Shown here: in pieces, positions 1 to 31,332 of the stretch | Layout: every line of letters starts with the position of its first letter | Numbering within the stretch: position 1 is the first letter of the stretch | Origin: Saccharothrix sp. | Lineage (GTDB): Bacteria > Actinomycetota > Actinomycetes > Mycobacteriales > Pseudonocardiaceae | Direction: 5' to 3' | Assembly: GCF_031180885.1 (NCBI RefSeq) | Contig: NZ_JAPSLK010000007.1 | Location: 114,455-146,454, forward strand | Length of the DNA: 32,000 nucleotides | Notes under the pieces: generated by a model | What the model was told of the DNA's origin: nothing | Databases searched by the model: none | Seen by the model: only the letters and a program-made list of their open reading frames with translations | Translations under genes and position numbers: made by a program

Positions 1-848
1 GGCCCGTGGCCTTCGGCGATCGCGCGCTTGCCCAGCGCCGTGATGAGCGCCGGCCACTCGGTGTTGACGCCCAGTTCCCGGCTCTCGTCGAGCAGGTGGT
101 CCATCGCGTCGACGTGCGTGTCGATGGTGGAGTCCTCGGCGGGCCAGTCACCCGCGTCGATCTGCGCGGCGTAGGCCTCGATGAAGCCCAGCGTCATCTC
201 GGCGAGCGCCTTCGCCAGCGGCAGGTACTCGGTGGCCTTCACGCCCGCGGTGCCCAGCAGCGCCACACCGTGCAGGAAGCTGTTCTCGACGCCCCACATC
301 ATGGTCAGCAGCGAGACGTCGTGCAGCGCGGCGAGACCGTGGTCCTCGCCCAGGTACGTGGTCCCCGCGGGGGCCACCGCCTTGAGGGTCTCCACGTGCT
401 CGTCGAACGCCGACTTCGGACCGCAGTGCAGCAGGATCGCCTCGTCGGTGGCGATCCCCGGCGGGATGGCCATGATCGCGCTGTCGATGTACGCGCCGAC
501 GTTGTGCTCCGCCGCCCACTTCGCCATGCCCCGCGACTGCGACGAGCTGGCGCTGGTCATGTTGACCAGGGTGCGGCCCTCGAACGAACCCACCACCGGG
601 TCCAGCAGGTCGTGGACCGCGTCGTAGTCCGAGACGCAGATGACGACCAGCGGGCTCGCCTCGACGGCGTCCTTGACCGACGGCGCCAGGACCGCGCCCT
701 TGGCGACGAGTTCGTCGGCCTTGCTCGCCGACCGGTTCCACACGGTGGTCGGGTGCCCGTTCCCGAGGAACGCGGCGGCCAATGCCTGACCCATCAGGCC
801 CAGGCCGATCACGGTGACCGGCGCCTGGGCGGCATTGGGGTTGGACAT
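1..848 (-). CDS. Imine reductase (IRED)-like NAD(P)H oxidoreductase with a beta-hydroxyacid / 6-phosphogluconate dehydrogenase fold. The C-terminus lies beyond the window edge.
   Basis: Absent from the supplied ORF track because no stop codon falls inside the window. Minus-strand ATG at 848-846, with AGGAG (plus-strand ctcct, 857-861) 8 nt upstream. My translation: MSNPNAAQAPVTVIGLGLMGQALAAAFLGNGHPTTVWNRSASKADELVAKGAVLAPSVKDAVEASPLVVICVSDYDAVHDLL...YLGEDHGLAALHDVSLLTMMWGVENSFLHGVALLGTAGV... It has a GxGxxG Rossmann motif, and the xLxDxxLLxxMW region resembles Asp-type IREDs. GC3 bias is strong in this frame. The listed ORFs 6..953(+) and 148..981(-) are Arg/Gly/Pro-rich shadows. Confidence 0.7.
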   Translation of the reverse strand, partial: MSNPNAAQAPVTVIGLGLMGQALAAAFLGNGHPTTVWNRSASKADELVAKGAVLAPSVKDAVEASPLVVICVSDYDAVHDLLDPVVGSFEGRTLVNMTSASSSQSRGMAKWAAEHNVGAYIDSAIMAIPPGIATDEAILLHCGPKSAFDEHVETLKAVAPAGTTYLGEDHGLAALHDVSLLTMMWGVENSFLHGVALLGTAGVKATEYLPLAKALAEMTLGFIEAYAAQIDAGDWPAEDSTIDTHVDAMDHLLDESRELGVNTEWPALITALGKRAIAEGHG

Positions 849-976
849 CACATTCACTCCTGTTCAGCCCGCGCCGGTTCACCCGGCGCGGCGTGTTGTC
901 GGCGTCCTGCAACGGTTTCACCGCCCTCGCGACCGGACCAGCGGCGAACGTGACCTTCTTCGAACGTTTCCTGCCG

Positions 977-982
977 TACACT
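977..982 (+). promoter_or_regulatory. Possible -10 hexamer (TACACT, TAnnnT class) 7 nt upstream of the ATG at 990, which would imply a leaderless or near-leaderless transcript for the regulator gene
   Basis: TACACT at 977-982 and ATG at 990. There is no Shine-Dalgarno sequence between them and no convincing -35 element. This arrangement is common in actinomycetes but is a weak signal on its own. Confidence 0.2.
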
Positions 983-989
983 CGCGACC

Positions 990-2087
990 ATGGGGCCGGG
1001 TGTCGTCGCGATCGCTGTGCTCAACGGAACCGACATGCAGGTCTGCGAGGTGTACGAGACCGCCATCGCGAACGCGGTCTTCGGTGATCCGCAACCGGAT
1101 CTGGCCGATCCCTGGTACGAGGTGAAGCTCTGCACGGGATCGCGGGACGAGCCCACGCCGCACGGTTTCTCCTTGCGCAGCAAGCACGGGCTCGACGACC
1201 TGGTGGTCGCCGACACCGTCATAGTCCCGTCGGTCCCGGACGACGTGCTCCAGGGCCGCGCTCCGCTGGCGCCGGAGTTCGTGGCGGCGCTGCGCGACGC
1301 GGCCGCGGCGGGCGCGCGCATGGTGTCGTTGTGCAGCGGGGCGTTCGCCCTCGCCGAGGCGGGCCTGCTCGACGGCCGCCGGGCCACCACGCACTGGATG
1401 CACACCGCCGACCTCGCCAAGCGCTACCCGCGGGTCCAGGTCGAGGACGCGGTGCTCTACGTCGACGACGGCGACGTCCTCACCAGCGCGGGCATGACCG
1501 CGGGCCTGGACCTGTGCCTGCACCTGGTGCGCCGCGACCTGGGCGCCCACGTCGCCGGCCAGCTGGCCCGCCGGATGGTCGTGGCGGGGCACCGCCCCGG
1601 CGGGCAGGCGCAGTTCGTCGACCTGTCCGTGCCCGAGGACGACGACGACACCCTGGCCATGGCGATGGACTGGGCCTCGGGCAACCTCGACCAGCCGCTC
1701 ACCGTGGACGCGATGGCCAAGCGGGCCGGCATGAGCCCCCGCACGTTCTTCCGCAAGTTCCAGGCGACCACCGGGCTCACCCCGTTGAAGTGGCTGCTCA
1801 ACCAGCGCCTGTCCCGCGCGCAGAGCCTGCTGGAGACCACCGACCTGCCGATCGAGCGGATCAGCGAGGCCAGCGGGATGGGCACCGCGACCAACCTGCG
1901 CCGGCACTTCACCGCGCAGGTCGGCGTGACGCCCACCGACTACCGGCACGCGCTCGGCTTCCGCGCCCGCCGGGCGGCCGAGCGGGGCGCCGACCCGGTC
2001 ACGCGGTGGTCGGCGCCCGCGCCCCGTCAGGGCTTCGGCGGCACCGGGAAAGAGCTCTCCGCCGGCCAAGGGCCGTTGCCCGCGTAG
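990..2087 (+). CDS. GlxA-family transcriptional regulator (N-terminal DJ-1/PfpI class I amidotransferase-like domain plus C-terminal AraC-type HTH)
   Basis: 365-aa ORF. The N-terminal half carries the nucleophile-elbow Cys (MVSLCSGAFALAEAGLLDGRRATTHW). The C-terminal half has the AraC double HTH (LTVDAMAKRAGMSPRTFFRKFQATTGLTPLKWLLNQRLSRAQSLLETTDLPIERISEASGMGTATNLRRHFTAQVGVTPTDYR). It is divergent from the IRED-like gene, and its low-complexity tail overlaps the convergent 2027..2461 gene by 61 nt. Confidence 0.85.
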   Translation: MGPGVVAIAVLNGTDMQVCEVYETAIANAVFGDPQPDLADPWYEVKLCTGSRDEPTPHGFSLRSKHGLDDLVVADTVIVPSVPDDVLQGRAPLAPEFVAALRDAAAAGARMVSLCSGAFALAEAGLLDGRRATTHWMHTADLAKRYPRVQVEDAVLYVDDGDVLTSAGMTAGLDLCLHLVRRDLGAHVAGQLARRMVVAGHRPGGQAQFVDLSVPEDDDDTLAMAMDWASGNLDQPLTVDAMAKRAGMSPRTFFRKFQATTGLTPLKWLLNQRLSRAQSLLETTDLPIERISEASGMGTATNLRRHFTAQVGVTPTDYRHALGFRARRAAERGADPVTRWSAPAPRQGFGGTGKELSAGQGPLPA

Positions 2088-2461
2088 GCGTTGTCGATCA
2101 CGTAGCGCCAGCCGCCGTCCTCGCCGCGCTGGAGCACGTCGACCGCCAGGCCGCTGAGCTTCTCCGGCTTGCCGTCCCGGGTGGTGTCCATCTCCCACTC
2201 GACCACCACCATGGCGGTGTCGCCGTTGACCATCTGCTGGAGCACGGTCGCCTCGACGGTCGCGTTGCGGGTCTTGATGAAGTGCTCGACGTAGTCCCGG
2301 CGCGCCTGGCCCTGGACCGGCTTGCCGGGTTCCCACATGCCCACGGCGTCGTCGACGTACAGGGCGTTGACCGCGTCCACGTCGCCCGCGTTGAACGCCA
2401 CGTTGAACATTTCCTGGTGCGTGTCGATGTCGGTGGCCAGGTGGTCTTTTTTGGAGGCCAT
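2027..2461 (-). CDS. NTF2-like (SnoaL / DUF4440-type) small protein
   Basis: 144-aa ORF: MASKKDHLATDIDTHQEMFNVAFNAGDVDAVNALYVDDAVGMWEPGKPVQGQARRDYVEHFIK...VVVEWEMDTT...GGWRYVIDNAY. The size and the N-terminal pattern (F..AFNAGD.DA...LY.DDAV) are typical of NTF2-fold SnoaL-like proteins. ATG at 2461 is preceded by GGGAGTGGG. It lies directly downstream of the PKS genes on the same strand. Confidence 0.7.
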   Translation of the reverse strand: MASKKDHLATDIDTHQEMFNVAFNAGDVDAVNALYVDDAVGMWEPGKPVQGQARRDYVEHFIKTRNATVEATVLQQMVNGDTAMVVVEWEMDTTRDGKPEKLSGLAVDVLQRGEDGGWRYVIDNAYAGNGPWPAESSFPVPPKP

Positions 2462-2564
2462 GGTCAGCCCACTCCCGTTCTCGGTTCTCGTTCGTCGGAT
2501 CGTGCTCGGCGTGACGTTCGGGCAACGCCGAGATGGACGCTACCGGCGGTCGAACGCATTCCGA

Positions 2565-2638
2565 CCGCAGTCGGGTAATCGCCGCCGCAGTCGGGTAATC
2601 GCCGCCGCGACGGCGTGGCGACCGGCGGCGATTACCCG
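2565..2638. repeat. Intergenic repeat cluster: two perfect tandem 20-bp copies plus an inverted 16-bp copy
   Basis: CCGCAGTCGGGTAATCGCCG occurs at 2565-2584 and again at 2585-2604. CGGGTAATCGCCGCCG (2592-2607) is the perfect reverse complement of CGGCGGCGATTACCCG (2623-2638), with a 15-nt spacer. The cluster lies between the PKS stop/terminator and the start of the NTF2-like gene. Confidence 0.9.
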
Positions 2639-2654
2639 GTTGACACCAATTGGA

Positions 2655-2682
2655 GATCCGGCCGGCGCTTTCCGGCCGGATC
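2655..2682 (-). terminator. GC-rich hairpin 5 nt after the PKS stop codon (putative intrinsic terminator, no U-tract)
   Basis: GATCCGGCCGG (2655-2665), loop CGCTTT (2666-2671), CCGGCCGGATC (2672-2682). This is a perfect 11-bp stem. The PKS stop codon is at 2688-2690. Confidence 0.5.
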
Positions 2683-2687
2683 AGCGG

Positions 2688-9098
<6,411 letters not shown>

Positions 9099-9127: not shown

Positions 9128-12100
9128 TCAGCTGTCGGCTCGGCCGAGTTGGTTGTCGATGAACGCCAGCAGCTCCGCGGTGGACGCCTCCTCGATGGCC
9201 GCGTCCGGCGTGCCGGCGGTGATCCCGGAGCCGTGCCAGGTCTCCATCCAGCGGGAGAGGATCGTCTGGAGGCGGACGGTGATCGTGTCCCGGCTCCGGT
9301 CGTCCTCCCCGATGCCGGACAGGACGTCCTCCAGCTTGTCCAGCTCCGCCAGCACCGGTGACGCGGTCGGCGCGGCGCTCTCCGGGGCGATCTCCCGGAG
9401 CAGGAACGCGGTCAGGGCGGCCGGGGTCGGGTAGTCGAACACCAGCGTGGCGGCCAGTTTCACGCCCACCGCCGCGCCGAGCCGGTTGCGCAGCTCGACC
9501 GCGGTCAGCGAGTCGAAGCCCAGCTCCTGGAAGGGCCGCTCGGGGTCGACGGCGTCCGCGTCGCGGAGACCGAGCACCGCCGCCACCTGGCCCGCGACCA
9601 GCCGCAGGACGGTCGCCTCGTGCTGGTCGGCGGGCAGCTCGGCGAGCCGTTGCGCCAGGGGCAGGCCGTCGTCTTCGGTGGGCCGCGTGGCGGGCGGGAC
9701 CAGACCGCGCAGCAGCGGGTTGACCTCGCCGCCGGCGCGCGCGGCGTCCAGGTCGAGCGGGGTCGCGGTCAGCGCGGCGTCGGGCAGGCCGAGCGCGGCG
9801 TCGAGCACGGCCAGGCCGTGGGCCACGCCGACCTGGGCGAACCCGTCGCGGCGCAACCGGGCCAGGGCGGCGTCGGTCGCGCCGGCGCCGATGCCGCCGT
9901 CGACCTCCCACAGGCCCCAGCCCAGCGCGGTCGCGGGCAGGCCGCGGGACGCCCGGTGCCGGGCCAGTCCGTCCAGGAACGCGTTGGCCGCGGCGTAGTT
10001 GGCCTGCCCCGGACCACCGGTGACGCCCGGCAGCGCGGAGAACAGGACGAACGCCGACAGCGCCACGCCCTCGGTCAGCTCGTGCAGGTGCCACGCGCCG
10101 TCGACCTTGGCCCGCAGCACGCGCTCCAGCTGCGCGGGCTCCAGCTCGGTCACCGGGTTGCCGTCGAGCACGCCGGCCGCGTGCACCACGGCGGTCAGCG
10201 GGTGCTCGGCCGGGACGCCGGCCAGCAGCGCGGCCACCGCGTCGCGGTCCGCGACGTCGCACGCGGCGATCTCCACCGACGCGCCGTGCTCGGCCAGCTC
10301 CCGCCGCAGCGGCTCGGCGCGCTCGGCGTCCGCACCGGACCGGTTCACCAGCAGCAGGCGCCGCACGCCGTGCGCGGTCACGAGGTGGCGGGCGACCTCC
10401 GCGCCCAACGCCCCGGTGCCCCCGGTGATCAGGACCGTGCCCGAGGTGGGCCAGCCGCCCGGCCCGGCGTCCGGGACGGAGTCGCCGACCCGGCCGAGCC
10501 GGGGCGCCAAGACCTCTCCGCCGCGCACGGCGGCGGCGGGCTCGTCGGTGTCGAGCAGCGCGGCGAGCAGCGCCAGGTCGACGGTGTCGGTGTCGACCAG
10601 GACGATCCGGCCCGGGTTCTCCAGTTGCGCCGAGCGGACCAGACCCCACAGCGCGGCGGCGGCCGGGTCGCACACGTCGGTCTCGGCGGCGACCACGGCG
10701 CCCCTGGTGAGCACCACCAGCCGGGTCTCGGCCAACCGCTGGTCGGCCAGCCACGCGCGCAGTGACGCCAGCACGCCCGAGGTGGCCGTGCGGGTTCGCG
10801 CCGCGGCGTCGTCGCCGGGCTCGACGTCGGCGTTCAGCAGCAGCACCTCGGCGGCCTCGGTGACGGCGGTGACGTCGTCGAACACCGGCAGGTCGGTCCG
10901 CGTGCCGCCGATCGCGGCCCAGCGGGCCGGCGGCGTGCCCGGGGTCAGCGGCAGCGCCGTCCACTCCAGCCGGTGCAGCGACCGGGTGGGGCCGGGGCCG
11001 CCGACCACGTCGGCCGGGGTCCGGTCGCGCCAGGTGACCGAGTCCACGGTGGCGACCAGGCCGCCGTCCGCGTCGGTCAGCAGCACCGACGCGGTGTTCT
11101 CGCCGGTCGGCGTGACCAGCGCCCGCACCGCCGAGACGCCGGTGGCGTGCAGCCGCAGCCCGCGCCACCCCTCGGCCAGGTGGCCGCGGGTGACGCCCGC
11201 GAGCGCCAGGGCCTCGCGCAGCAGGGTCGGGTGCAGGCCGAACCCGGCCGCGTCCCGGGTGTGCCCGTCGCCGAGCCGCAGGTCGACCGCGGTCCCGTCG
11301 CCACGTCGTGCCGGGGTCGTGGTCTCGGCGGTCAGCACGCCGGTGGCCACCCGGACCCACTCGCCCTCGGCGACCTCGGCGTGCACGGACACCGCACGCC
11401 GACCGCTCTCGTCCGCCTCGCCGACGCGGGCCTGCACGGACGTGGCACCCGACTCCGGCACGGCCGGCTCGGCCGCCACCGCCAGCTCGGCCACGACCGG
11501 GCAGCCGACCTCGCGGCCGGCCCAGGCGGCCGCCTCGGCCAGCGCCGACGCGGGCAGCACCACGGTGTCGGACACGGTGTGCTCGGCCAGCCACGGGTGC
11601 GCGGCCTGCGACGCCAGGCCGGTGAACAACGCCTCGTCGGTGTCGGCCAACCGCACCGTCCCGCCCAGCACCGGGTGGTCACCCGGCTTCGGGCCGAACG
11701 CCACCGGCACGCCCGGCGACTCCAGCCAGTACCGCTCGCGCTGGAACGGGTACGGGGGCAGGTCGACGACCTCCGCCCCGGTGCCGGCGAAGAACGCCGC
11801 CCAGTCCACCGGCACGCCCCTGGTGTGCAGCAGGCCCAGCGCACCGACCAGGGTGCGCGGCTCGTCCTGGCCGTTGCGCATGGCCGGGATCGGCACCGCG
11901 CGCTCCACGCAGGCCGCGGCCATCGCCGACAGCACCCCGTCCGGGCCCAGCTCCAGCATCGTGGCGACGCCCTGCGCCTCCAGCTCGCGGACGCCGTCGA
12001 CGAACCGGACGGGCAGGCGCACGTGGTCCACCCAGTAGTCCGGGGTGGTCCACCGGTCGCCGGACTCGACCTCGCCGGTCACCGTCGACACCACCCTGAT

Positions 12101-15100
12101 CTTCGGCCGGTGGAAGGTCAGCCCTTCCGCGACCGCCCGGAACTCCTCCAGCATCGGCTCCATCCGAGGCGAGTGCGACGCGACGCTGACGGCCAGGCGC
12201 CTGGTCCGGCGCCCGCGTTCCTTCCAGAGCGCGGCGACGGCCTCCGCCGCGTCGGTGTCGCCGGAGACGACGACCGACCGCGGGCCGTTGATGGTGCCGA
12301 TGACCACCCGGCCGGACGCCGGCAGCGTCTCCAGGACCTCCTGCTCGGTCGCCTCGATCGCGATCATCGCGCCGCCGTCGGGCAGCCCGTTCATCAGCTG
12401 GCCGCGCGCGGTGACCAGCGTGGCCGCGTCCGGCAGGGACAGCACCCCGGCGACGTGCGCGGCGATCAGCTCGCCGGTCGAGTGGCCGATGAGGAAGTCC
12501 GGGTGCACGCCCCACGCGGCGAGCTGGCGGAACAGCGCGACCCCCACCGCGAACAGCCCGGCCAGCAGGTTGTCGATCCGGTCCAGGTCCTCGCCGGTGT
12601 CGATGACCTCCCGCAGCGGTCGCGGCAGGCCCTTGTCCAGTTCGTCGGCCACCTCGTGGAAGGCGTCCCGGAACACCGGGAACGCTTCGCACAGCTGCTT
12701 GGCCATGCCCACGCGCTGCGCGCCGCCACCGGTGAACATGAACGCGGTCAGGCCCTCGGTGCGCACGCCGCGCACGGCTTCGGGGCCGTCGGCGGCCAGC
12801 TCGGACAGGCCGCGCAGCAGCTCGTCGCGGTCGGCGGCCACGACCACGCCGCGGTGCGCGAGCGCGGACCTCGTGGTGGCCAGGGACAGGGCGACGTCGA
12901 GCCGGTCCACATCGCCCTCGGCCAGCAGCTCGCCGATCCGGGCCGCGTGGGCGCGCAGGCCCGCGACCGAGCTGCCGGAGAGCAGCCACGGCACCACCGG
13001 AAGCTCAGCGGTGACGGGGGTGTCGGTCTCGGCCGGGGCCTCGGGCGCCTCCTCGATGATCACGTGCGCGTTGGTGCCGCTGATGCCGAACGACGACACC
13101 GCGGCCCGCCGGGGCTCGCTCCCCCGGTCCCACGGTTGTTCCCCGGTCAGCAGCGCCAGCCCGCCGGACGACCAGTCCACGTGCGGCGACGGCGTCTCCG
13201 CGTGCAGGGTGCGGGGCAGCGTCCGGTGCCGGATCGCCTCGACCATCTTGATGACGCCGCCGACCCCGGCCGCCGCCTGGGAGTGGCCGATGTTGGACTT
13301 CAGCGAGCCCAGCCACAGCGGCCGATCGGCGTCGTGCGCGGCGCCGTAGGTGGCCAGCAGCGCCTGCGCCTCGATCGGGTCGCCCAACGGGGTGCCGGTG
13401 CCGTGCGCCTCGACGACGTCCACGTCGGCCGGGCTCAGGCCCGCGTTCGCCAGCGCCTGCCGGATCACGCGCTCCTGCGACGGCCCGTTGGGCGCGGTGA
13501 GCCCGTTGGACGCGCCGTCCTGGTTGATCGCGGAGCCGCGCAGCACCGCCAGCACCCGGTGCCCGTTGCGCCGGGCGTCGGACAGCCGTTCCAGCAGCAG
13601 CAGGCCGACGCCCTCGCTCCACACCGTGCCGTCGGCGTCGGCGGAGAACGACTTGCAGCGGCCGGACGGCGACAGCCCGCGCTGCCTGCTGAACTCGATG
13701 AACGAGCCGGGGCCGGCCATCACGGTCACCCCGCCCGCCAGCACCAGGTCCGACTCGCCCGACCGCAGGGCCTGCCCGGCCAGGTGCAGGGCCACCAGCG
13801 AGGACGAGCACGCCGTGTCGACGGTGACCGCGGGCCCCTCCAGCCCGTAGGTGTAGGCCAGGCGCCCGGAGATCACGCTGGAGGTGTTGCCCACCAGCAG
13901 GAACCCCTCGAACTCCGGCGGCACGGACTTCAGGTGCGCGGCGTAGTCGTCGTACATCGCCCCGACGAACACGCCGGTGTTGCTGCCGCGCAGGGTGGCC
14001 GGGTCGATCGCGGCGCTCTCGAAGGTGTGCCACGCCGTCTCCAGCAGCAGCCGCTGCTGCGGGTCGGTCGCGGTGGCCTCGCGCGGGGAGATGCCGAAGA
14101 AGTCCCGGTCGAACAGGTCGGCGTCGTGCAGGAAGCCGCCCTCCCTGATGTAGGAGGTGCCGATGGCCTCCGGGTCGGGGTCGTAGAGCCCGTCGAGGTC
14201 CCAGCCCCGGTTGGTCGGGAACCCGCTGATGGCGTCGCCGCCTTCGGCGACCAGCCGCCACAGGTCCTCCGGCGAGCGGACACCGCCCGGGTAGCGGCAG
14301 GCCATGCCGATGATCGCGATCGGCTCGTCGTCGGCGACGGTGGCCTTGACCGCGGCGCCGGCGGCGGCCTCGCCACCCAGCCTGCCCAGCAGGTACGCGG
14401 CCAGCGCCCGCGGGCTCGGGTGGTCGAACACCACCGTGGACGGCAGTGTCAGCCCCGTCGTGGCGCCGAGCTGGTTGCGCAGCTCGACCGAGGTCAGCGA
14501 GTCGAAGCCCTGGTCCTTGAACGCCCGGGCGGGCTCCACGGCCGCGCCGGAGGTGTGGCCCAGCGCGAGTGCCGCCGTGTTGCGCACCAGCTCCAGCACG
14601 GCGGGCTCGCGCTCGGCCTCGGGCAGCGCGCTGATCCGCGCGGCCCAGCCGTCCGGGACCGCCCGGCGTTCGGCCCGCCGGGGCCGGACCAGGCCGTGCC
14701 ACAGCCTCGGGCGCTCGCCGCCGGCCGCCAGGTCCAGCGCGGCGGGCACGAGCAGCGGGTGGCCCGAGCCGAGCGCCTCGTCGAACATCGCCAGGCCCTG
14801 CGCCGGGGTCAGCGGGGTCACGCCGGCGCGGGACCAGCGCCGCACGTCCGCCTCGGACAGGGTCGCGCCCATGCCCTCGGCTTCCGCGCCCCACAGGCCC
14901 CACGCCAGCGAGGTCGCGGCCAGTCCTTGGGCGGCGCGGTGGGCGGCCAGCGCGTCGAGGTAGGTGTTCGCCGCGGCGTAGTTGGCCTGCCCGGCCGTGC
15001 CCAGGATGCCGGAGACCGACGAGAACAGCACGAACGCGGCGAGGTCGTCGTCGGCGGTCAGGGCGTGCAGGTGCCACGCGCCGTCGACCTTGGGCCGCAG

Positions 15101-18100
15101 CACGGTGGCGACCTGGTCGGCGGTCAGCGCCGTGATGGTCGCGTCGGCCAGGACGCCCGCGGTGTGCACGGCCGCGGTCAACGGGTGCTCGGCGGGGACC
15201 AGCGCCAGGGCGGCGGCGAGCGCGTCCCGGTCGGCGACGTCGGCCGCGGCGACCAGGACCTGCGCGCCCGCCGCCGTCAGGTCGTCGACCAGCGCGGCGC
15301 AGCCGGGGCTGTCCGCCCCGCGCCGGCTGACCAGCAGCAGGTGCCGCACGCCGTGCGCGGCGACCAGGTGCCGGGCCACCACGGCGCCCAGGCCGCCGGT
15401 GCCGCCGGTGATCACGACGGTGCCGTCGGGGTCGATCGCCCGACCGGTCGGCTCGGGCGCGGACCGGGCCAGGCGGGCGGCGTGCAGCCGGCCCGAGCGG
15501 ATGGCGACCTGCGGTTCCCCGCTCGCGGCGGCCGCGAGGACCAGGGTGTCGTCCGAGCCGTCCGTGTCGACCAGCACCAGGCGACCGGGGTGCTCGGCCT
15601 GCGCCACCCGGACCAGGCCCCACACGGGCGCGTGCGCCAGGTCGTCGACCCGGTCGCCGGGCAGGGCGGCGACCGCGCCGCTGGTGACCAGGACCAGGGT
15701 GGCGTCGGCGAACCGCTGGTCGGTCAGCCACTCCCGCACCAGCGCGAGGGCCGAAGCGGTGGCCTCGTGCGCGTCGGCGGGTGAGTCGCCGCCGCCGGTC
15801 AGCGTGGCCACCACGACGTCGGCGCGTTCGGTGTCGGCCAGGGTGGCGGCCAGGTCGGCCCGGGTCAGCGCCCCGGTGCCGGGGGTCGCGATCGGGGGCC
15901 AGGTGACGGCGAACAGCGAGCTGCCCTGGCCCGCCTTGCCGATCACGGCGCGGGGGACGCCGCGCAGGGTCAGCGACTCGACGGTGAGCACCGGCGCGCC
16001 GGTGGTGTCGGTCAGCTCCAGCCGGACCGCGTCCCGCCCGGTCGGCGACACTCGCACCCGCGCGGCCGTCGCTCCCCTGGTGTGCAGGGTGACGCCCTCC
16101 CAGGCGAACGGCAGCCGGATCTCGTCGCGGTCGCGTGCCGCGTCGGGCAGCAGCGGGTGCAGGGCCGCGTCGAACAGCGCGGGGTGCAGTCCGAACCGGT
16201 CGTCGTGGTCGGCGTCCGGCAGCGCGATCTCGGCCAGGACGTCCGAACCCGCCCGCCACACCGACCGCAGCCCCTGGAACACCGGGCCGTAGTCGTAGCC
16301 GAGCCCGGCCAGCGCCGGGTAGGCGTCGTCGACCGGCTCGGCCACCGCGCCCGCCGGCGGCCACGGGGTCACCGCCGCGGCGGGGCGTTCCCCGGCGGGG
16401 CCCAGCAGGCCCGCGGCGTGCTCGGTCCACGCGGCGGCCGGGTCGTCGGCGGCCGGCCTGGAGTGGACGGTGAACCGGCGCGCGCCGGAGTCGTCCGCGG
16501 CGGCCACCCTGACCTGCACCCGCACCGACTCCCCGGCGGGCAGCGGCAGCGGGGCCTGGAGCGTCAGCTCCGCCACCCGCTCGGCGCCCGTGTGCTCGCC
16601 GGCGGCGAACGCCAGTTCCAGGAACGCGGTGGCGGGCAGGAGCGCCACGCCTTCGATGACGTGGTCGGCCAGCCACGGGTGCGTCCTGGTCGACAGCACG
16701 CCGGTCAGCACCGCGCTCCCGTCGTCGGCCACGTCGACCACGCCGCCCAGCAGCGGGTGCCCGGCCGGTTCGACGCCGAGGCCGCGCGCGTCGGGACGGG
16801 AGCTTGCGGTCAGCCAGAAGTGCTCGCGCTGGAAGGCGTACGTCGGCAGGTCGGCGGGGACGGCGTCCGGGAAGAACGGCCTGAGGTCGACCTCGGCGCC
16901 GGCCGCGTGCGCGGCCGCCAAGCCGGCCACGAAGGTGTCGACCTCCGGCCGGTCCGCGCGGGCCAGCGGCACGGCGGTCGCGGTCGCGCCGGCCGCCTCC
17001 ACGGTCCCCCGCGCCTGTGCGGTCAGGACCGCGTCCGGGCCGATCTCCACGAGCACCGTCGCGCCCAGGCCGGTCGCGGTCACCACGGCGTCGTGGAACC
17101 GGACCGCCGAGCGGATCTGGTCGACCCAGTAGTCGGCGGTGGTGATCCGCTCCGGGGCCACGACCGCGCCGGTGACGGTGGAGACGACCGGGATGACCGG
17201 CGCGTGGAAGGTCAGCCCTGCGGCGACCGCGCGGAACTCGTCGAGGATGTCGTCCATGTGCGGCGAGTGGAACGCGTGGCTGACGCGCAGCGCCCGCACC
17301 CGGTGGCCCTTGTCCTTCCACTGCTGTGCCACGCGGTGCGCGACCTCCGCGTCACCCGCGATCACCACCGCCCGCGGGCCGTTCACGGCGGCGATGTCGA
17401 CCAGCCCGGCGTGCTCGGCGATCGAGGCGGCGACGGCGTCGGGCTCGGCCTCGATCGCGACCATCGCGCCGTCCGACCGCGCGGCCTGCATCAGCCTGCC
17501 GCGGGCGGCGACCAGCGTCGCGGCGTCCTCGGCGGAGAGCACCCCGGCCACGTGCGCGGCGGCCAGTTCGCCGATCGAGTGCCCGGCCACCAGGTCCGGC
17601 GTCACGCCGTGGTGCGCGGCCAGGCGGTGCAGCGCCACCTCGACGGCGAACAGCGCGGGCTGGGTGTACCGGGTCTGGTCGAGGTCCTGCCCGCTCTCGA
17701 CGACCTCGCGCAGCGGTCGGTCCAGGTGCGGGTCGAGGTGCGCGGCGATCTCGTCGAACGCCTCGGCGAACACCGGGAACTCGGCGTGCAGCGCCATGCC
17801 CATGCCGACCCGCTGCGCGCCCTGCCCGGTGAACATCAGCAGGGTCTTGCCGGTCGACGCCGTCCCGCGCACCACGGTCGGGGAGGCGTCGCCGGCCGCG
17901 AGCGCGGCCAGCCCGTCGAGCCGGTCCTGCGCGGTCGAGCCGAGCACCACCGCGCGGTGGGCGAACGGGGTGCGGGTGGTCGCCAGGGCGAGGCCGATGT
18001 CGGCCGGGTGCGCGTCCGCGCGGGCGAGCACGAACTCGCGCAGCCGCGCGGCCTGGGCGCGCAGGCCGTCGCCGGTCGGCGCGGACAGCACCCACGGCGC

Positions 18101-21100
18101 CCGCGCCGGGTCACCGCCGCCGGACCGCTCCGGCTGCGGCTCCACCTCGATGACGGCGTGGGCGTTGGTGCCGCTGATCCCGAACGACGACACGGCCGCG
18201 CGGCGCGGCCGCCCGGTCTCCGGCCACGCGCGGTTCTCGGTGACCAGCGAGACCGCGCCCGAGGCCCAGTCCACGTGCGGCGTCGGCTCGTCCACGTGCA
18301 GGGTGGCCGGGACGACCCCGTGGCGCATCGCCTGCACCAGCTTGATCACGCCACCGACCCCGGCCGCGGCCTGGGCGTGGCCGATGTTGGACTTGAGCGA
18401 CCCGAGCAGCACCGGCTCCCGGTCGCCCCGGTCGGCGCCGTAGGTGGACAGCAGCGCCGTCGCCTCGATCGGGTCGCCCAGGCTGGTGCCGGTGCCGTGC
18501 GCCTCGACCACGTCGACGTCGGCGCCGGTGAGCCCGGCGTCGGCGAGGGCCTGGCGGATCACCCGCCGCTGCGCCAGGCCGCTCGGCGCGGTCAGGCCGT
18601 TGGACGCGCCGTCGGAGTTGACCGCCGAGCCCCGCACCACGGCCAGCACCGGGTGCCCGTTGCGGCGGGCGTCGGACAGCCGCTCGACCACGAGCAGGCC
18701 CACGCCCTCGGCCCACGCGGTGCCGTCGGCGGCGGCGGCGAAGGACTTGCAGCGGGCGTCGGGGGCGAGGCCCTGCTGGCGGGAGAACTCCAGGAACATG
18801 CCCGGCGTCGACATCACCGCCACGCCGCCCGCGATCGCCAGCGACGTCTCGCCCCGGCGCAGCGACTGGACGGCCAGGTGCAGCGCCACCAGGGACGACG
18901 AGCACGCGGTGTCGACGGTGAGGGCGGGGCCGAGCAGGCCCAGCTGGTAGGCGATGCGGCCGGACATGACGCTGGCCGTGCCGCCGGTGAGCAGGTGCCC
19001 CTCGACGTTCGCCGGCGCGTCGTGCATCCGCGGTCCGTAGTCGAACGTCGTGGCGCCGATGAAGACACCGGTGCGGGAGCCGCGCAGGTCGCGGGGGACG
19101 AGACCGGCCCGTTCCAGCGCCTCCCACGTGGTCTCCAGCAGCAGCCGCTGCTGCGGGTCCATCGCCTGCGCCTCGCGCGGGGAGATCCCGAAGAAGCCGG
19201 CGTCGAAGCGGCCCGCGTCGTGCAGGAAACCGCCCTCGCGCACCGAACTGCGGCCGGACGCGCCGGGATCGGGGTCGAACAGGTCCTCGGGCCAGCCGCG
19301 GTCGGCGGGGAACCCGGAGATGGCGTCGCCGTTGCCCGCGACCAGCGCCCACAGGTCCTCCGGCGAGGCGACCCCGCCGGGGTAGCGGCACGCCATCCCG
19401 ATGATGGCGATGGGCTCGTCGTCCGCCACCGCGGCGACCTCGTCGACGTCGTCGGCACCGCCGCCGAGCCGGGCGTCGAGGTGCGCGGCCAGCGCGGCCG
19501 GCGTGGGGTGGTCGTAGAGGGTGCTCGACGGCAGGTCCAGCCCGGTGGCCGCGGCGAGGGCGTCACCGAGTTCCACGGTCATCAGCGAGGTGAAGCCCAG
19601 CTCGCGGAACGGCAGGTCGACCTCGACCGCCTTGCCGGGTGCCAGGCCGAGGACGGCGGCGACGTGCGCGTTCACCAGGTCGGCGGCGCGGGCGGGTCGG
19701 CCGGTGGTGACCGGGCGCGGCGCGGGTGCGGGGGTGGCGCGCGGCGCGGGTGCGGGCTCGGCCGGGCCTTCGGTGACCCAGAAGCGCTCGCGCTGGAAGG
19801 CGTAGGTCGGCAGGTCGACGCGGCGCGCGCCGGTGCCCGCGAACACCTGGCTCCACTCCAGCTCGACGCCGGACACGACCAGCCGGGCCACCGCCGTCAT
19901 CGCGGTGCGGGGCTCCGGCTTGTCCTTGCGCAGCACCGATTCCGCGCGCACCGCGGACCGGTCGACGACGCTTTCGGCGACCATGGCCGAGCACACGCCG
20001 TCCGGGCCGAACTCGACGACCGTGCGCACCCCCGCCGCCTCCACGGCACGCGCGGCGTCGGCGAAGCGGACGGTCGCGCGGACCTGCTCCACCCAGTACT
20101 CCGGGGACGCCAGGAGTTCGGGGGCGGCGACCTGTCCGGTCACCGTGGAGACCACCCTGATCCGCGGCGGGTGGAACTCCAGACCGGACACGACGGCGCG
20201 GAAGTCGTCGAGCATGGGCTCCATGCGGTGGGAGTGGAACGCGTGGCTCACCGCGAGCCGCTTGGTCTTGTGCCCGGCCTCCTTCAGCCGCGCGGCGGCG
20301 TCGAGCACGGCGTCCTCGTCACCGGAGAGCACCACCGCTTCGGGGCCGTTGACGGCGGCGATGGCCACGGTGTCGGACAAGTACTCGGCGACCTGTGCCT
20401 CCGTCGCGCCGACGGCCACCATGGCGCCGCCCTCGGGCAGCGCCTGCATCAGGCGTCCCCGTGCGGCGACGAGCGCGACGGCGTCGGGCAGGGACAGCAC
20501 GCCCGCGACGTGCGCGGCGGCGACCTCGCCGATGGAGTGGCCCAGCACGAAGTCCGGTCGCAGGCCCCACGACTCGAACAGCCGGAACAACGCCACCTCG
20601 ACCGCGAACAGCGCGGGCTGGGTGTACCCGGTCTGGTCGAGGTCTTCCCCGCTCTCGACCACCTCGCGCAAGGGCCGGTCCAGGAGCGGGTCGAGCAGCG
20701 CCACGACCTGGTCGAAAGACCGCGCGTAGACCGGGAACTCGGCGTGCAGCGCCATGCCCATGCCGACCCGCTGCGCGCCCTGGCCGGTGAACACGGCCGC
20801 GGTCGCGCCCGCCGACGCGACGCCGGTGACGAGCCCGGCGGCCGGGGCGCCCGCGGCCAGCGCGCGCAGGCCGGCGACCAGTTCGGCGCGGTCCGCGGCG
20901 ACGACGGCGGCGCGGTGGGGGAACCGGGTGCGCGTGGTCAGCGCGGACCAGCCCACGGACGCGATGTCGGCGTCACCCGCCTCGACCGCGTCCGAGAGCC
21001 GCTCGGCCTGCGCGCGCAGCGCTTCCGGGCTCCGGCCGGTGACGACCACCGGCAGCGGTGCCGTGACGTCGGGCTGTCGGGCGCCGGTGGGCTCGGCGCG

Positions 21101-22426
21101 CCGCGCGGTCGGCGCGGGCTGCGCGGTCGGCGCTTCCGCGACGACGACGTGGCAGTTGGTGCCGCCCATGCCGAAGGAGCTGACGCCCGCGACGAGCCGG
21201 CGGTCCGGGTGCGGCCACGGCGAGCGGCTGGTGACCACGGAGAGGTTCAGCTCGTCGAACGGGATGGCCGGGTTCGGCGTCTCGAAGTTGAGGCTCGCGG
21301 GCAGTTCGCGGTGGGCGACCGCCAGCACGGTCTTCACCAGGCCGGTGATGCCGGCGGCGGCCTCCAGGTGGCCGATGTTGGTCTTCACCGAGCCGACGAC
21401 CAGGGGGTCGCCGGACCGCTTGAGCGTGCCGATCGACGCGCCCAGCGCCGCGGCCTCGATCGGGTCGCCCACCGGGGTGCCGGTCCCGTGCAGCTCGACG
21501 TACTGCACGTCGTCCGGCGACACGCCCGCCCGGCGGTGCGCCGTCCGCACCACCTGCTCCTGCGCGAACGCGCTGGGCACCGTGAGCCCGGAGGTCGCGC
21601 CGTCGTTGTTGACCGCGCTGCCCAGCAGCACGCCGTGCACCCGGTCACCGTCGGCGAGGGCGGCCCGCAGCGGCTTGAGCACGACCACGGCGGCGCCCTC
21701 GCCGCGCGCGTAGCCGTTGGCGCGGGCGTCGAAGGTGTGGCAGCGGCCGTCGGGGGACAGCCCGCCGAACCGCTCGGCGCCCAGCACGGTCTCGGCGAGG
21801 ATGTTGAGGTTCACGCCCGCGGCCAGCGCCAGCGCGGAGTCGCCCGAGCGCAGCGACTCGCACGCCAGGTGCACCGCGACCAGCGACGACGACTGGCTGG
21901 TGTCGACGGTGAGGCTGGCGCCGCGCAGGCCCAGGGCGTAGGAGACGCGGTTGGCGATGACGCCGCGGTGCACGCCCGCGTTGGTGTGCTGGGTGATCGC
22001 GGCCGAGCCCTGCCGGTAGACCAGGCCCGCGTAGTCCTCGCGCGCGGTGCCGACGAAGACCGAGGTCGGGCTGCCCTCCAGGTCGGCGGCGACGATCCCG
22101 GCGTCCTCCAGCGCGGACCAGGCCAGCTCCAGCAGCAGGCGCTGCTGCGGGTCCATCACCCGCGCCTCGCGCGGCGAGATGCCGAAGAAGGCGGCGTCGA
22201 AGTCGGCTATCGAGTCCAGGAAACCGCCTCGGCGCACCGGATCGCCCGGGTCGGCGGAGATCGGTTCCCAGCGGTGCGCGGGCATGTCGGTCAGCGCCTC
22301 GCGCCCGGACCGCAGCAGGTCCCAGAACGCGGCCACGTCCGGCGCGCCGGGCAGCAGGCAGGACATCCCGATGACCGCGATCGCGTCCTCGTGCTGGGTG
22401 CCGTGGAAATGCTGACTGCTCGACAT
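9128..22426 (-). CDS. Modular type I PKS with a loading module and two extension modules: KSQ-AT-ACP / KS-AT-DH-KR-ACP / KS-AT-DH-KR-ACP-dock (about 4432 aa)
   Basis: The ORF is 9128..22504. The preferred start is ATG 22426 ([23 protein letters not shown]...), preceded by GAAGGG; the 26 codons upstream are basic and atypical. KS active sites are DTSQSSS (Gln codon 21893-21895), DTACSSS (Cys 18902-18904) and DTACSSS (Cys 13808-13810). AT active-site Ser codons are 20534-20536, 17576-17578 and 12479-12481. ACP Ser codons are 19586-19588, 14498-14500 and 9509-9511. DH catalytic His codons are 16661-16663 and 11579-11581. KR TGGTG motifs lie at ~15381-15422 and ~10401-10427. The C-terminal ~80 aa look like a docking domain. 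Confidence 0.95.
9440..14330 (-). other. Extension module 2: KS-AT(atypical, VASH)-DH(HxxxD)-KR(LDG)-ACP
   Basis: KS DTACSSS. The AT has [25 protein letters not shown] and VASH (12173-12184). The DH has HPVLGG... and [10 protein letters not shown]. The KR has [18 protein letters not shown] and [21 protein letters not shown]. Confidence 0.8.
14420..19415 (-). other. Extension module 1: KS-AT(HAFH)-DH-KR-ACP
   Basis: [13 protein letters not shown]...DTACSSS; GHSIGE with HAFH (17267-17278); DH HPLLGG... and [45 protein letters not shown]. No ER motif is present. Confidence 0.85.
19510..22395 (-). other. Loading module KSQ-AT-ACP (decarboxylative priming; the AT motifs are malonyl-type)
   Basis: The KS has [13 protein letters not shown], with Gln in place of the active-site Cys, and retains [12 protein letters not shown] and [10 protein letters not shown]. 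The AT has GHSIGE and HAFH (20234-20245). The ACP has [13 protein letters not shown]. Confidence 0.85.
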
Positions 22427-24375: not shown

Positions 24376-24807
24376 TCAGTTGAGCTTCTCGCCGTAGACG
24401 CGCTCGACCTTGAGCGAGATGAGGACGCGCCGCTCGGCCACCATGACCGCCCGGTACTCGTCCCAGTCCGGGTGCTCGCCCGCGCCGAAGCGGTAGTAGT
24501 CGACTAACGCCTCGACCTCGGGCCCGTTGGGGTCGGTCCCCGGGCCGGTCAGGGTGACGGTGCCCTCGGCGGTCGCCCACGACCACCCGTCGGCGCTGGT
24601 GACCTCCAGCGCCGCGCGCGGGTCCCGGCGCAGGTTCGTGGTCTTGGCGTAGCCTTCGTTCGTCGACACCAAGATGACACCGGCGTCCCGGTCGTAGAAG
24701 TGATACACGGGGGACAGATGCGGGAAGCCGTTCCGCTTGAGTGTCGCGAGAACACCGATATTGCTTTTCGCGATCAGTTCGTGCGCGTTGAATGACGAAG
24801 CAGTCAT
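24376..24807 (-). CDS. PPOX-class (pyridoxamine 5'-phosphate oxidase-like split-barrel) oxidoreductase, probably F420- or flavin-dependent
   Basis: The ORF-track entry 24376..25026 begins with a 73-codon Arg/Pro/Gly-rich extension that overlaps the ROK gene's 3' end. The likely start is ATG 24807: MTASSFNAHELIAKSNIGVLATLKRNGFPHLSPVYHFYDRDAGVILVSTNEGYAKTTNLRRDPRAALEV...GTVTLTG (143 aa). This pattern is typical of the small actinobacterial PPOX/F420 family. The RBS is weak. Confidence 0.65.
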   Translation of the reverse strand: MTASSFNAHELIAKSNIGVLATLKRNGFPHLSPVYHFYDRDAGVILVSTNEGYAKTTNLRRDPRAALEVTSADGWSWATAEGTVTLTGPGTDPNGPEVEALVDYYRFGAGEHPDWDEYRAVMVAERRVLISLKVERVYGEKLN

Positions 24808-26036: not shown

Positions 26037-26061
26037 GGCACCTACTTGCTGCGACCGAACC

Positions 26062-26091
26062 TTGACTTGCTTCGATTTTCGCACATACCGT
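26062..26091 (+). promoter_or_regulatory. Candidate sigma-70-type promoter for the ABC-importer operon
   Basis: TTGACT (26062-26067), an 18-nt spacer, then TACCGT (26086-26091). GGGAGGG precedes the ATG at 26121. The 9-bp inverted repeat CTTGCTGCG (26045-26053) / CGCAGCAAG (26101-26109) brackets this element. Confidence 0.35.
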
Positions 26092-26120
26092 GCTGATCGA
26101 CGCAGCAAGCGGGAGGGACC

Positions 26121-28449: not shown

Positions 28450-28454
28450 ACCGG

Positions 28455-29684: not shown

Positions 29685-29689
29685 ACCGC

Positions 29690-29727: not shown

Positions 29728-29730
29728 GGC

Positions 29731-31332
<1,602 letters not shown>

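Follow-up and report, generated by a model that had tools for sequence, protein, structure and literature searches.

An imine reductase gene in a compact thioester-reductase polyketide synthase cluster in Saccharothrix, and its probable role in polyketide-alkaloid biosynthesis

Imine reductases (IREDs) are much used in chiral-amine synthesis, and native substrates have been established for very few of them. Many industrial biocatalysts are drawn from the canonical D187 IRED clade. In the plant coniine pathway, polyketide-derived 5-keto-octanal undergoes alanine-dependent transamination and spontaneous cyclisation to gamma-coniceine, which is then reduced by an NADPH-dependent gamma-coniceine reductase; the plant enzymes, a type III polyketide synthase (PKS) and different reductases, are unrelated to bacterial ones.

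Among bacterial systems, the argimycin P (arp) cluster, which encodes a PKS with a thioester reductase (TR) and a transaminase, contains the IRED homolog ArpDHII, whose reduction of the nigrifactin imine was demonstrated in knock-out, feeding and complementation experiments (PMC5820336, PMC5300972). The SnoaL-like proteins ArpHI and ArpHII are the proposed cyclases of that cluster (PMC5300972). For coelimycin, TR release followed by transamination has been demonstrated biochemically (PMC5365063). Here we describe an IRED gene at the edge of a 32,000-nucleotide stretch of Saccharothrix sp. DNA (the window), where a compact, probably C8, polyketide-alkaloid pathway offers a testable context for a native IRED role.

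The reading frame at the window edge and its family

Translation of the reverse strand from the ATG at 848-846 gives a frame that is open throughout to base 3, with 282 codons and no stop (1..848, minus strand). A Shine-Dalgarno-like AGGAG lies at 857..861 on the same strand, 8 nt from the ATG, and an in-frame GTG occurs just upstream, at 851-849. The original prediction had pointed to an unlisted minus-strand frame starting at 848, with its AGGAG and with no stop in the window; all of these are present, and the two peptides that it quoted, VTVIGLGLMGQALAAAFLGNGHPTTVWNRSASKADELVAKGAVLAPSV and GEDHGLAALHDVSLLTMMWG, occur exactly in the translation. In an alignment of loci the block GAACAGGAGTGAATGTG, in the AGGAG region, is unchanged between the window and the orthologous loci L001-L006. 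The frame is absent from the list of open reading frames because the lister reports an ORF only where its stop codon falls within the window; when run-off ORFs are omitted in this way, a gene that defines a pathway can stay hidden at the edge.

A long open frame in DNA of 74% G+C has no significance by itself, and this one is regarded as more than chance because of its homology (Pfam matches at 1.4e-36 and 2.6e-22, crystal structures at E = 1e-105). Its GC1, GC2 and GC3 values of 0.68, 0.46 and 0.95 are typical for a real actinomycete gene, as had been claimed from codon bias. GC3 alone, however, is not distinctive, since it is 0.96 in both this frame and the plus-strand frame that uses the third codon position of the IRED, and it cannot tell the two apart; the GC1>GC2 pattern and homology decide between them. 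The ORF at 6..953 on the plus strand, an antisense frame with the third codon position of the IRED, and the ORF at 148..981 on the minus strand have no Pfam match and were rejected as genes.

Because orthologs are 297-298 aa long (seven genomes; the exceptions are L007, with 306 aa, and L006, which runs off its contig) and 282 codons lie in the window, about 16 C-terminal codons should lie beyond its edge, for a predicted full length of about 298 aa. The five closest orthologs terminate in AEGHG[P/L]ASYAAMVEVFRKPSA before the stop codon, and the C terminus predicted from the orthologs for the window IRED is GHGPASYAAMVEVFRKPSA, again followed by the stop. The closest IRED in the protein collection is 93% identical, with no 100% match there, and the nearest DNA to the window is that of Saccharothrix sp. 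S26 (~91%). An exact-protein look-up of the neighbouring AraC/DJ-1 regulator gave no match; the exact SnoaL-like protein and the exact aminotransferase match public contigs that are 1.6-3.7 kb long and end short of the IRED.

Sequence comparison confirms the frame as a real imine reductase gene, encoding an IRED-family enzyme. Pfam places NAD_binding_2 (PF03446) at residues 11-167 (2.6e-22; 80 bits against a cut-off of 21) and RedAm-like_C (PF21761) at residues 169-282 (1.4e-36; 126 bits against a cut-off of 27), the latter profile being covered from position 1 to position 114 of its 127, since the gene runs past the edge of the window. Crystallised IREDs were matched in a PDB search at E = 1e-105 to 1e-93, among them 8J44 (1e-105; 60% identity), IR361/7OSN (1.5e-103; 58% identity), IR-G02/7XE8 (7e-95), the S. 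roseum IRED 5OCM (4.2e-94) and the S. kanamyceticus R-IRED Q1EQE0/3ZGY (8.6e-93). Two motifs define IREDs, the active-site motif being Gx[DE]x[GDA]x[APS]x3{K}x[ASL]x[LMVIAG] (PMC10107726). The first is present as GLGLMGQALAAAFLGNGHPTTVWNRSASK (residues 15-43) and the second as GEDHGLAALHDVSLL (residues 167-181). The resemblance to bacterial IREDs noted in the original prediction is thus borne out by both domains, by the crystal structures (down to 1e-105) and by both motifs.

At standard position 187 IREDs have no Lys but Asp, Tyr, Glu or Asn, and Asn191 is a mark of beta-hydroxyacid dehydrogenases (PMC10107726). In the window enzyme the {K} position, which corresponds to standard position 187, the proton-donor position and the site of Lys in beta-hydroxyacid dehydrogenases, is occupied by Asp177; 8J44 and IR361 also carry Asp in alignment with it. 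Standard position 191 is Leu181, not Asn. The enzyme is predicted to belong to the D187 ('R-type') IRED clade and to depend on NADPH, and its end-to-end alignment to IRED crystal structures makes a domain-swapped homodimer with an interface active site likely. The residue had been described as the Asp of the (R)-selective type. It does stand at the proton-donor position as in Q1EQE0/3ZGY, but selectivity cannot be read from Asp alone; the link between this Asp and (R)-selectivity is 'not fully understood' (PMC10107726).

Automatic annotation of homologs points instead to an ordinary beta-hydroxyacid dehydrogenase of the 3-hydroxyisobutyrate, tartronate-semialdehyde or 6-phosphogluconate dehydrogenase type. 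Databases name the homologs '3-hydroxyisobutyrate dehydrogenase-like beta-hydroxyacid dehydrogenase' and '6-phosphogluconate dehydrogenase NAD-binding protein', and the N-terminal Rossmann domain does match such models weakly. However, these matches cover residues 11-168 only, and the NCBIfam equivalog scores of 57.7, 49.1 and 33.4 bits compare with cut-offs of 340.75, 397 and 291.6 (57.7 against 340.75 for TIGR01505 and 33.4 against 291.6 for TIGR01692). Asp177 stands at the position of the catalytic Lys, which had been proposed as the distinguishing residue and is not present, and position 191 is Leu rather than Asn. What is more, the C-terminal domain is RedAm-like_C, and the best structural relatives are characterised IREDs. 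We give this identity practically no credence, and it is already refuted at the sequence level.

The gene neighbourhood and its conservation

Head-to-head with the IRED lies a gene (990..2087, plus strand) for an AraC-family regulator with an N-terminal DJ-1/PfpI domain, FtrA/GlxA-like (HTH_18, 4.7e-21; DJ-1_PfpI, 2e-13; FtrA model, 9.5e-100, below its cut-off). The same pair occurs in L001-L006, L008, L016, L017, L019 and L022. In an alignment of eight loci, the 141-bp divergent intergenic region (849..989) shows a mean column identity of 73%, with a conserved block of ~30 bp (consensus TGTACGGCAGGAATCGTTCGAAGA[A/T]GGTCA) ~10 nt upstream of the regulator ATG that is recognisable even in Micromonospora (L008). 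Presumably this region houses both promoters and an operator. Convergent with the regulator gene, and overlapping its 3' end by 61 bp, is the gene for a SnoaL-like/NTF2-fold protein of 144 aa (2027..2461, minus strand; DUF4440, 2.1e-12; SnoaL_2, 9.4e-12), a candidate cyclase or isomerase. A 535-aa ORF at 918..2525 on the minus strand was dropped in favour of these two convergent genes. Since the oppositely oriented regulator gene stands between them, co-transcription of the IRED with the PKS is impossible; from a putative promoter of its own, head-to-head with the regulator, the IRED would therefore be regulated apart from the PKS operon.

Pfam matches and motif inspection resolve the PKS into four modules, a KSQ loading module and three extension modules, with a thioester reductase at the end. 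PKS1 (9128..22426, minus strand; 4432 aa) comprises, by domain matches and motifs, the loading module, KSQ-AT(HAFH)-ACP with DTSQSS in the first KS; module 1, KS-AT(HAFH)-DH-KR-ACP; and module 2, KS-AT(VASH, atypical)-degenerate DH-KR-ACP. It contains 3 KS, 3 AT, 3 ACP, 2 KR and 2 PKS_DH_N matches and only 1 PS-DH; in the module 2 DH, GYxYGP is missing and Arg replaces the catalytic Asp. The AT signatures of the cluster are HAFH in three cases and VASH in one, and the unusual signature of the module 2 AT leaves its extender unit uncertain. PKS2 (2688..9098, minus strand, with the start ATG at 9098; 2136 aa) is docking-KS-AT(HAFH)-DH-KR(LDD)-ACP-TR, with intact DH motifs. Its PP-binding match (residues 1700-1766) is followed by NAD_binding_4 (1812-2048; 2.6e-65), and the TR domain, at about 2691-3764, carries TGATGFLG and YLQSK (catalytic YxxxK).

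A class-III (omega) aminotransferase of 536 aa (22668..24278, plus strand; Aminotran_3, 3.8e-62) diverges from PKS1, 241 bp from its start; putrescine aminotransferase (4.1e-56) and prodigiosin PigE (2.8e-53) are the models closest to it, and all of these matches stay below cut-off. An F420-dependent PPOX-class oxidoreductase of 143 aa (24376..24807, minus strand, ATG 24807; TIGR03618, 7.4e-38, 129.6 bits against a cut-off of 79) is a likely member of the cluster and a candidate C=C reductase or second C=N reductase. Genes for its homologs lie beyond the SARP gene in L003 and overlap the IRED stop codon in L007 and L023. The IRED occupies the middle of the cluster, and directly past it the orthologous loci encode a pair of flavin amine oxidases, a P450 and a SARP regulator. 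The same genes are predicted to follow the IRED over about 9 kb here, for a cluster of roughly 35 kb. Neither the window nor the next 10 kb in the orthologs revealed an acyl-CoA dehydrogenase.

The TR that ends the last module is the mark by which Awodi et al. recognise polyketide-alkaloid clusters, together with a CpkG-like omega-transaminase within 35 kb of the TR-PKS (PMC5365063); the aminotransferase, an omega-transaminase by its class-III family assignment, lies within that distance. The TR at the PKS end and the aminotransferase nearby also agree with the aldehyde- and amine-generating PKS of the original prediction. A literature search found no characterised product of this four-module cluster, and for polyketide alkaloids from Saccharothrix, Lentzea, Nonomuraea, Streptosporangium and Herbidospora it returned nothing specific.

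Six genomes from five genera and two actinomycete orders share the collinear order IRED-AraC-SnoaL-PKS at 85-90% DNA identity, and DNA similarity across these loci ends after the SARP gene. Cultured carriers of a near-identical cluster are Saccharothrix sp. S26, Lentzea alba NEAU-D13, Herbidospora cretacea NBRC 15474 and Nonomuraea longicatena JCM 11136. Synteny had been suggested as a check on the association, and the PKS is kept at every locus in the group of at least 70% identity (L001-L006, L016); the Actinokineospora IRED (70% identity) is likewise PKS-linked. At 59-62% identity, IREDs adjoin modular PKSs in Micromonospora, S. cyaneofuscatus and Saccharothrix espanaensis. In the last two the PKS ends in a TR, with SnoaL, amine oxidase and P450 neighbours as here. 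For Micromonospora we infer a TR from 73% DNA identity over the TR-containing PKS2 of the window; the neighbours there comprise an NmrA-like and a SnoaL-sized protein and a BTAD regulator.

Of nine homologs sampled at 57-64% identity, six lack a PKS within 10 kb and have their own regulator adjacent. The notion that all close IRED homologs are PKS-linked was therefore rejected, and family membership alone implies no polyketide substrate. The Streptosporangium homolog P0020 (64% identity), which may be closely related to the S. roseum IRED of 5OCM, has an AraC/DJ-1 partner and no PKS nearby.

The proposed pathway and alternative roles

We consider it probable that this ~298-aa, NADPH-dependent D187-clade IRED is a tailoring enzyme of a compact polyketide-alkaloid cluster. 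Judging from the gene content and the ArpDHII precedent, its most likely role would be the NADPH reduction of a cyclic imine formed after aldehyde release and transamination. From the PKS domain motifs, the backbone is predicted to be C8, built from acetate and three extender units, one of them probably branched, with an oxygen left at C5 by the degenerate module 2 DH. The TR would free the chain as an enal, predicted to be 5-hydroxy-4-alkyl-octa-2,6-dienal. The aminotransferase could then convert C1 to a primary amine, C5 would become a ketone, probably through an amine-oxidase-like flavoprotein, and C2=C3 would be isomerised or reduced, for which the SnoaL-like protein and the F420 reductase are candidates. 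Condensation of the amine with C5 would close a six-membered ring to form the cyclic imine, either a 1-piperideine or a dihydropyridine. NADPH would be the source of the hydride that the IRED adds to the C=N carbon, while Asp177 would protonate or position the iminium, and the resulting 2,3-disubstituted piperidine or tetrahydropyridine would be further modified by the oxidases and the P450. Against this proposal count the C2=C3 bond, which is predicted to be E-configured by the LDD-type KR and would need isomerisation or reduction before a six-membered ring could close, and the separate transcription unit of the IRED.

That separation is one of several observations that would suit an autonomous, ligand-inducible module of IRED and divergent AraC/DJ-1 regulator, residing in or captured by the cluster without being a required step of the biosynthesis, which might for example detoxify or salvage reactive cyclic imines or aldehyde-amine adducts, or serve self-protection. 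The window IRED has its own putative promoter region, and the opposed regulator gene insulates it from the PKS operon. Head-to-head pairs with no PKS within 10 kb occur in Streptosporangium (L017, L018) and S. lusitanus (L022), and stand-alone homologs come with regulators of their own: a divergent MerR in L023 and L024, a TetR divergent from the SnoaL gene adjoining the IRED homolog in L020, and an MmyB-like regulator ~1.1 kb upstream in L007. On the other hand, every locus of at least 70% identity embeds the pair between SnoaL/PKS and amine oxidase/P450/SARP genes, and these have moved together between orders. In Saccharothrix espanaensis a SnoaL-IRED-amine oxidase-P450 cassette stands beside a TR-PKS with the AraC gene absent, and the link between IRED and cluster is therefore independent of the regulator. 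ArpDHII, moreover, shows that true pathway enzymes do occur among such IREDs, and we regard the autonomous module as unlikely.

It is improbable, too, that the enzyme acts as an intermolecular reductive aminase, joining a PKS-derived aldehyde, or a ketone, to a free amine to give a secondary amine with no pre-formed cyclic imine. Its C-terminal domain does fall in a Pfam family named after reductive aminases, and close structural relatives such as IR-G02/7XE8 (7e-95) carry out reductive aminations (PMC9814587). Yet a dedicated class-III aminotransferase lies beside the PKS, as in coelimycin and argimycin, where nitrogen enters via transamination; the predicted C5 oxygen is well placed for intramolecular imine formation; and no gene for a second amine substrate was identified in the window and orthologous loci.

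Imine reduction within the pathway, the reading that we prefer, would give a well-supported natural context to an enzyme that shares ~60% identity with IR361, the S. roseum IRED and the S. kanamyceticus R-IRED. A broader and more tentative possibility is that the canonical D187 clade has a native home in a family of widespread, horizontally mobile small TR-PKS alkaloid clusters with a recurring SnoaL-IRED-amine oxidase-P450 cassette, that the C8 version makes an undescribed coniine-like 2,3-disubstituted piperidine or tetrahydropyridine, and that IRED and AraC/DJ-1 regulator were recruited as a ligand-sensing unit.

Comparison with characterised systems

ArpDHII of Streptomyces argillaceus was compared with the window IRED by published description, and in these terms the two are alike in length (~293-298 aa), NAD_binding_2 fold and significant similarity to 3ZGY. 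The proven role of ArpDHII, reduction of a piperideine C=N, is the one proposed here. Both clusters combine a modular PKS that ends in a thioester reductase with a class-III aminotransferase, and each also encodes SnoaL-like proteins, an amine-oxidase-like flavoprotein, a small reductase of the flavin/deazaflavin type and a large SARP regulator. However, the arp PKS is hexamodular and makes a C12 chain leading to nigrifactin-type products, whereas loading and three extension modules here predict a C8 backbone. The acyl-CoA-dehydrogenase-like ArpDHI and TetR regulation are found only in arp, while the present cluster differs in its P450, its two paralogous amine oxidases and the pairing of its IRED with an AraC/DJ-1 regulator. 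With only four KS/AT/ACP sets and no acyl-CoA dehydrogenase, assignment to the argimycin P/streptazone type was rejected. Piperideine reduction by an IRED encoded in a TR-PKS/transaminase cluster is a concept established since 2017-2018. The novelty of the physiological context was thus overstated in the original prediction, ArpDHII having already been shown genetically to act in this way (PMC5300972, PMC5820336), and the present case is a good annotation catch.

The coelimycin (cpk) and other clusters of Awodi et al. 2016 (PMC5365063) resemble this one in their TR-ended modular PKS, their omega-transaminase within 35 kb and their later flavoprotein oxidases. The cpk product is a hexaketide, and the same paper describes the cpk pathway with no step by an IRED; in chain length and gene set the present cluster fits none of the product skeletons named in that paper. 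The coniine pathway shows the step order predicted here on a C8 polyketide (aldehyde, amine, cyclic imine, NADPH-reduced piperidine), a resemblance of logic only. Finally, the biocatalytic D187-type IREDs (Q1EQE0 3ZGY/3ZHB, 5OCM, 7OSN, 7XE8 and 8J44) share ~58-60% identity over the full length with the window enzyme, as well as the cofactor and active-site motifs and the Asp. Their use is as catalysts, with a native substrate absent from the cited papers, whereas the conserved biosynthetic surroundings of the window IRED suggest a class of substrate.

The imine reductase frame and its family

The minus-strand frame at the left edge of the window starts with an ATG at 848-846 and, as originally predicted, stays open to that edge, over 282 codons (reverse complement of 1-848), preceded by an AGGAG at 861-857 and an in-frame GTG at 851-849. 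Both peptides quoted in the original prediction were found verbatim in its translation. Because the frame runs off the window edge, it is absent from the ORF listing, which leaves out ORFs running off a sequence end; the ORFs listed over this region, 6..953(+) and 148..981(-), gave no match in a Pfam search. Positional G+C of the frame is 0.68/0.46/0.95 (codon positions 1/2/3). The claim that no other frame has proper codon bias holds for the GC1>GC2 pattern but not for GC3, which fits a plus-strand frame with the same third codon position equally well and alone fails to tell the two apart. Judged by GC1>GC2 and homology, which settle the choice, the minus-strand frame is the coding one. Orthologs taken from genomes are 297-298 aa long, and the five closest end in ...AEGHG[P/L]ASYAAMVEVFRKPSA*; the window therefore holds all of the gene except about 16 codons.

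The assignment to the imine reductases (IREDs) was borne out by Pfam matches to NAD_binding_2 (residues 11-167, 2.6e-22) and RedAm-like_C (residues 169-282, 1.4e-36) and by the best matches among PDB sequences, which run end to end: 8J44 (E = 1e-105, ~60% identity), IR361/7OSN (1.5e-103, ~58%), IR-G02/7XE8 (7e-95), the Streptosporangium roseum IRED 5OCM (4.2e-94) and the S. kanamyceticus R-IRED 3ZGY (8.6e-93). The protein has both of the motifs by which PMC10107726 defines IREDs: residues 15-43 form the cofactor motif, and residues 167-181, GEDHGLAALHDVSLL, the active-site motif. The Asp expected at the proton-donor position is Asp177 (standard position 187, where Lys is disallowed). On these matches and motifs, the window protein belongs to the D187-type IREDs. 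Asp at this position is also that of the R-type IREDs such as 3ZGY, but stereoselectivity cannot be read from the Asp alone (PMC10107726).

A beta-hydroxyacid dehydrogenase is excluded at the sequence level. The NCBIfam equivalogs for tartronate-semialdehyde reductase, HIBADH and 6PGDH match the Rossmann half only, at 33-58 bits against cut-offs of ~270-450; the catalytic Lys, looked for as a refuting feature, is replaced by Asp177; and standard position 191, where Asn marks these dehydrogenases (PMC10107726), is Leu181.

Gene neighborhood and distribution

Genes were called from codon-position analysis and Pfam/NCBIfam scans. Beyond the IRED lie an AraC-family regulator with a DJ-1/PfpI domain (FtrA-like; 990-2087, +), a SnoaL-like protein (2027-2461, -), the polyketide synthase (PKS) genes PKS2 (2688-9098, -) and PKS1 (9128-22426, -), a class-III aminotransferase (22668-24278, +) and a TIGR03618 F420-dependent PPOX-class oxidoreductase (24376-24807, -). 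The ROK-family regulator, family-3 solute-binding protein, ABC permease and double ABC ATPase at 24882-31332, to the right, are probably ordinary flanking genes outside the cluster. The convergent AraC and SnoaL-like genes have 61 bp in common at their 3' ends (2027-2087), an overlap called identically in six short public contigs (L009-L014).

The IRED and AraC/DJ-1 genes share a conserved 141-bp divergent region, presumably their control region. Co-transcription of IRED and PKS, a suggested check, is ruled out by gene anatomy, because the oppositely oriented AraC gene stands between them. The head-to-head arrangement occurs in cluster-borne copies (window 849-2087; L016, L019) and in the PKS-less loci of Streptosporangium (L017/L018) and S. 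lusitanus (L022); elsewhere, IRED homologs that stand alone have a MerR, TetR or MmyB-like regulator as their neighbor.

Screening genomes, one per species, turned up eight loci, six of which (Streptosporangium sp., Lentzea alba, Herbidospora cretacea, Saccharothrix sp. S26, Nonomuraea longicatena and Saccharothrix sp. Mg75) carry an IRED 75-93% identical in amino acids to that of the window, with IRED, AraC, SnoaL and PKS collinear with the window at 87-91% DNA identity. Beyond the window, 3' of the IRED, these loci have a pair of paralogous flavin amine oxidases together with a P450 and a SARP regulator of 800-930 aa, and similarity between genera stops directly past the SARP gene. The IRED is therefore interior to a cluster of ~35 kb and does not border it. 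Over window 1-22426 the DNA identity is 85-91% between genera of two orders, Pseudonocardiales (Saccharothrix, Lentzea) and Streptosporangiales (Streptosporangium, Herbidospora, Nonomuraea), which suggests that the cluster was transferred horizontally, recently and as one block.

The Actinokineospora iranica IRED (70% identity) is also PKS-linked. Among homologs at 57-64% identity, three adjoin a modular PKS: those of Micromonospora (L008; 73% DNA identity across PKS2) and of S. cyaneofuscatus (L019) and Saccharothrix espanaensis (L021), whose PKSs end in ACP-TR (TR, thioester reductase domain) with SnoaL, amine oxidase and P450 neighbors. The other six (L007, L017, L020, L022, L023, L024) have no PKS within 10 kb, and each adjoins its own regulator gene (AraC/DJ-1, MerR, TetR or MmyB-like).

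The tandem amine-oxidase genes (L004 11462-12991 and 13377-15065; equivalents in L001-L003) are ~82-83% DNA-identical to one another, so the duplication is recent; S. cyaneofuscatus and S. espanaensis have a single copy. Window 2462-2687 was compared with L001 7172-8217, L003, L005, L008 and L019. Between the TR-PKS and SnoaL genes, where the window, Saccharothrix and Lentzea versions have a short spacer, those of Streptosporangiales, Micromonospora and S. cyaneofuscatus include one more gene, for an NmrA-like NAD(P)-binding protein (~280-325 aa). In L008 and L019 the NmrA-like gene is preceded by another of ~450 aa, whose L008 copy matches FAD-dependent oxidoreductases.

Polyketide chain, proposed route and alternatives

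Motif inspection gave the domain order KSQ (DTSQSS)-AT(HAFH)-ACP for the loading module, KS-AT(HAFH)-DH-KR-ACP for module 1, KS-AT(GHSTG/VASH, atypical)-DH remnant-KR-ACP for module 2 and KS-AT(HAFH)-DH-KR(LDD)-ACP-TR for module 3. The TR has TGATGFLG and YLQSK (NAD_binding_4, 2.6e-65); with the aminotransferase encoded alongside, it agrees with the predicted aldehyde- and amine-generating PKS neighborhood. In module 2 the AT has the unusual GHSTG and VASH signature (PKS1 residues ~3270-3420, window ~11500-12500), with RIDNLLAG replacing the usual (Q)TxYTQPALF or RVDVVQ stretch, and the DH remnant (window ~10900-11600) is truncated, lacks GYxYGP and has Arg instead of the catalytic Asp; extender unit and C5 oxidation state are therefore uncertain. 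From this order we infer a 5-hydroxy-4-alkyl-octa-2,6-dienal as the released product.

Enzyme family, active-site residue, PKS domain set including the terminal TR, and conserved linkage are established by sequence for the cluster, which also encodes an aminotransferase, oxidases, a P450 and an F420 reductase. In another system, coelimycin, it is already established that a TR releases the chain as an aldehyde and that a CpkG-type enzyme transaminates it (PMC5365063). Here, once C1 had been transaminated and the C5 hydroxyl oxidized, the amine would condense with C5 to a six-membered cyclic imine, which the IRED would reduce with NADPH. Isomerization or reduction of C2=C3 would be needed first, with the SnoaL-like protein and the F420-dependent reductase as candidates. 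In two PKS-less Nonomuraea loci the start of the TIGR03618 gene (gene at L007 10918-11349 and L023 10897-11328) overlaps the IRED stop codon, which implies translational coupling. This overlap suggests that the IRED and the TIGR03618 reductase share one substrate, for example a conjugated imine in which they would reduce C=N and C=C.

The IRED and its dedicated regulator look like a recurrent inducible unit, and it is plausible, given the stand-alone AraC-IRED pairs (L017/L018, L022), that this module is autonomous and merely resides in the cluster. We disfavor this, since the IRED is embedded in the cluster and co-transferred with it, and S. espanaensis has the same cassette without AraC. Intermolecular reductive amination, feasible for the IRED family, is a possible role, but one that the dedicated aminotransferase makes unnecessary. 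Cyclic imine reduction is our preferred reading. A bolder reading, which we consider less likely than not, would place the native role of this IRED clade in a mobile family of small TR-PKS alkaloid clusters, with a coniine-like C8 alkaloid as the product and with AraC/DJ-1-IRED recruited as a unit.

Comparison with known systems

A search of a literature library for the window cluster or its product found no description. The analysis provides a useful annotation rescue of the IRED and a testable substrate hypothesis, for which cultured strains exist, although an IRED in a TR-PKS alkaloid cluster will not surprise specialists. The idea that the neighboring PKS gives the IRED a physiological context is supported as an interpretation, but a proven example was already known: the IRED homolog ArpDHII of the argimycin P (arp) cluster reduces the piperideine imine of nigrifactin, as demonstrated by knock-out, feeding and complementation (PMC5820336). 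The window cluster has the TR and transaminase that define actinobacterial polyketide-alkaloid clusters. It is none of the arp, streptazone (stz) and coelimycin (cpk) clusters, having four modules, not six, no ArpDHI and different regulators. ArpDHII is its nearest precedent in function; in sequence, biocatalytic IREDs are the nearest relatives of the window IRED among those with structures.
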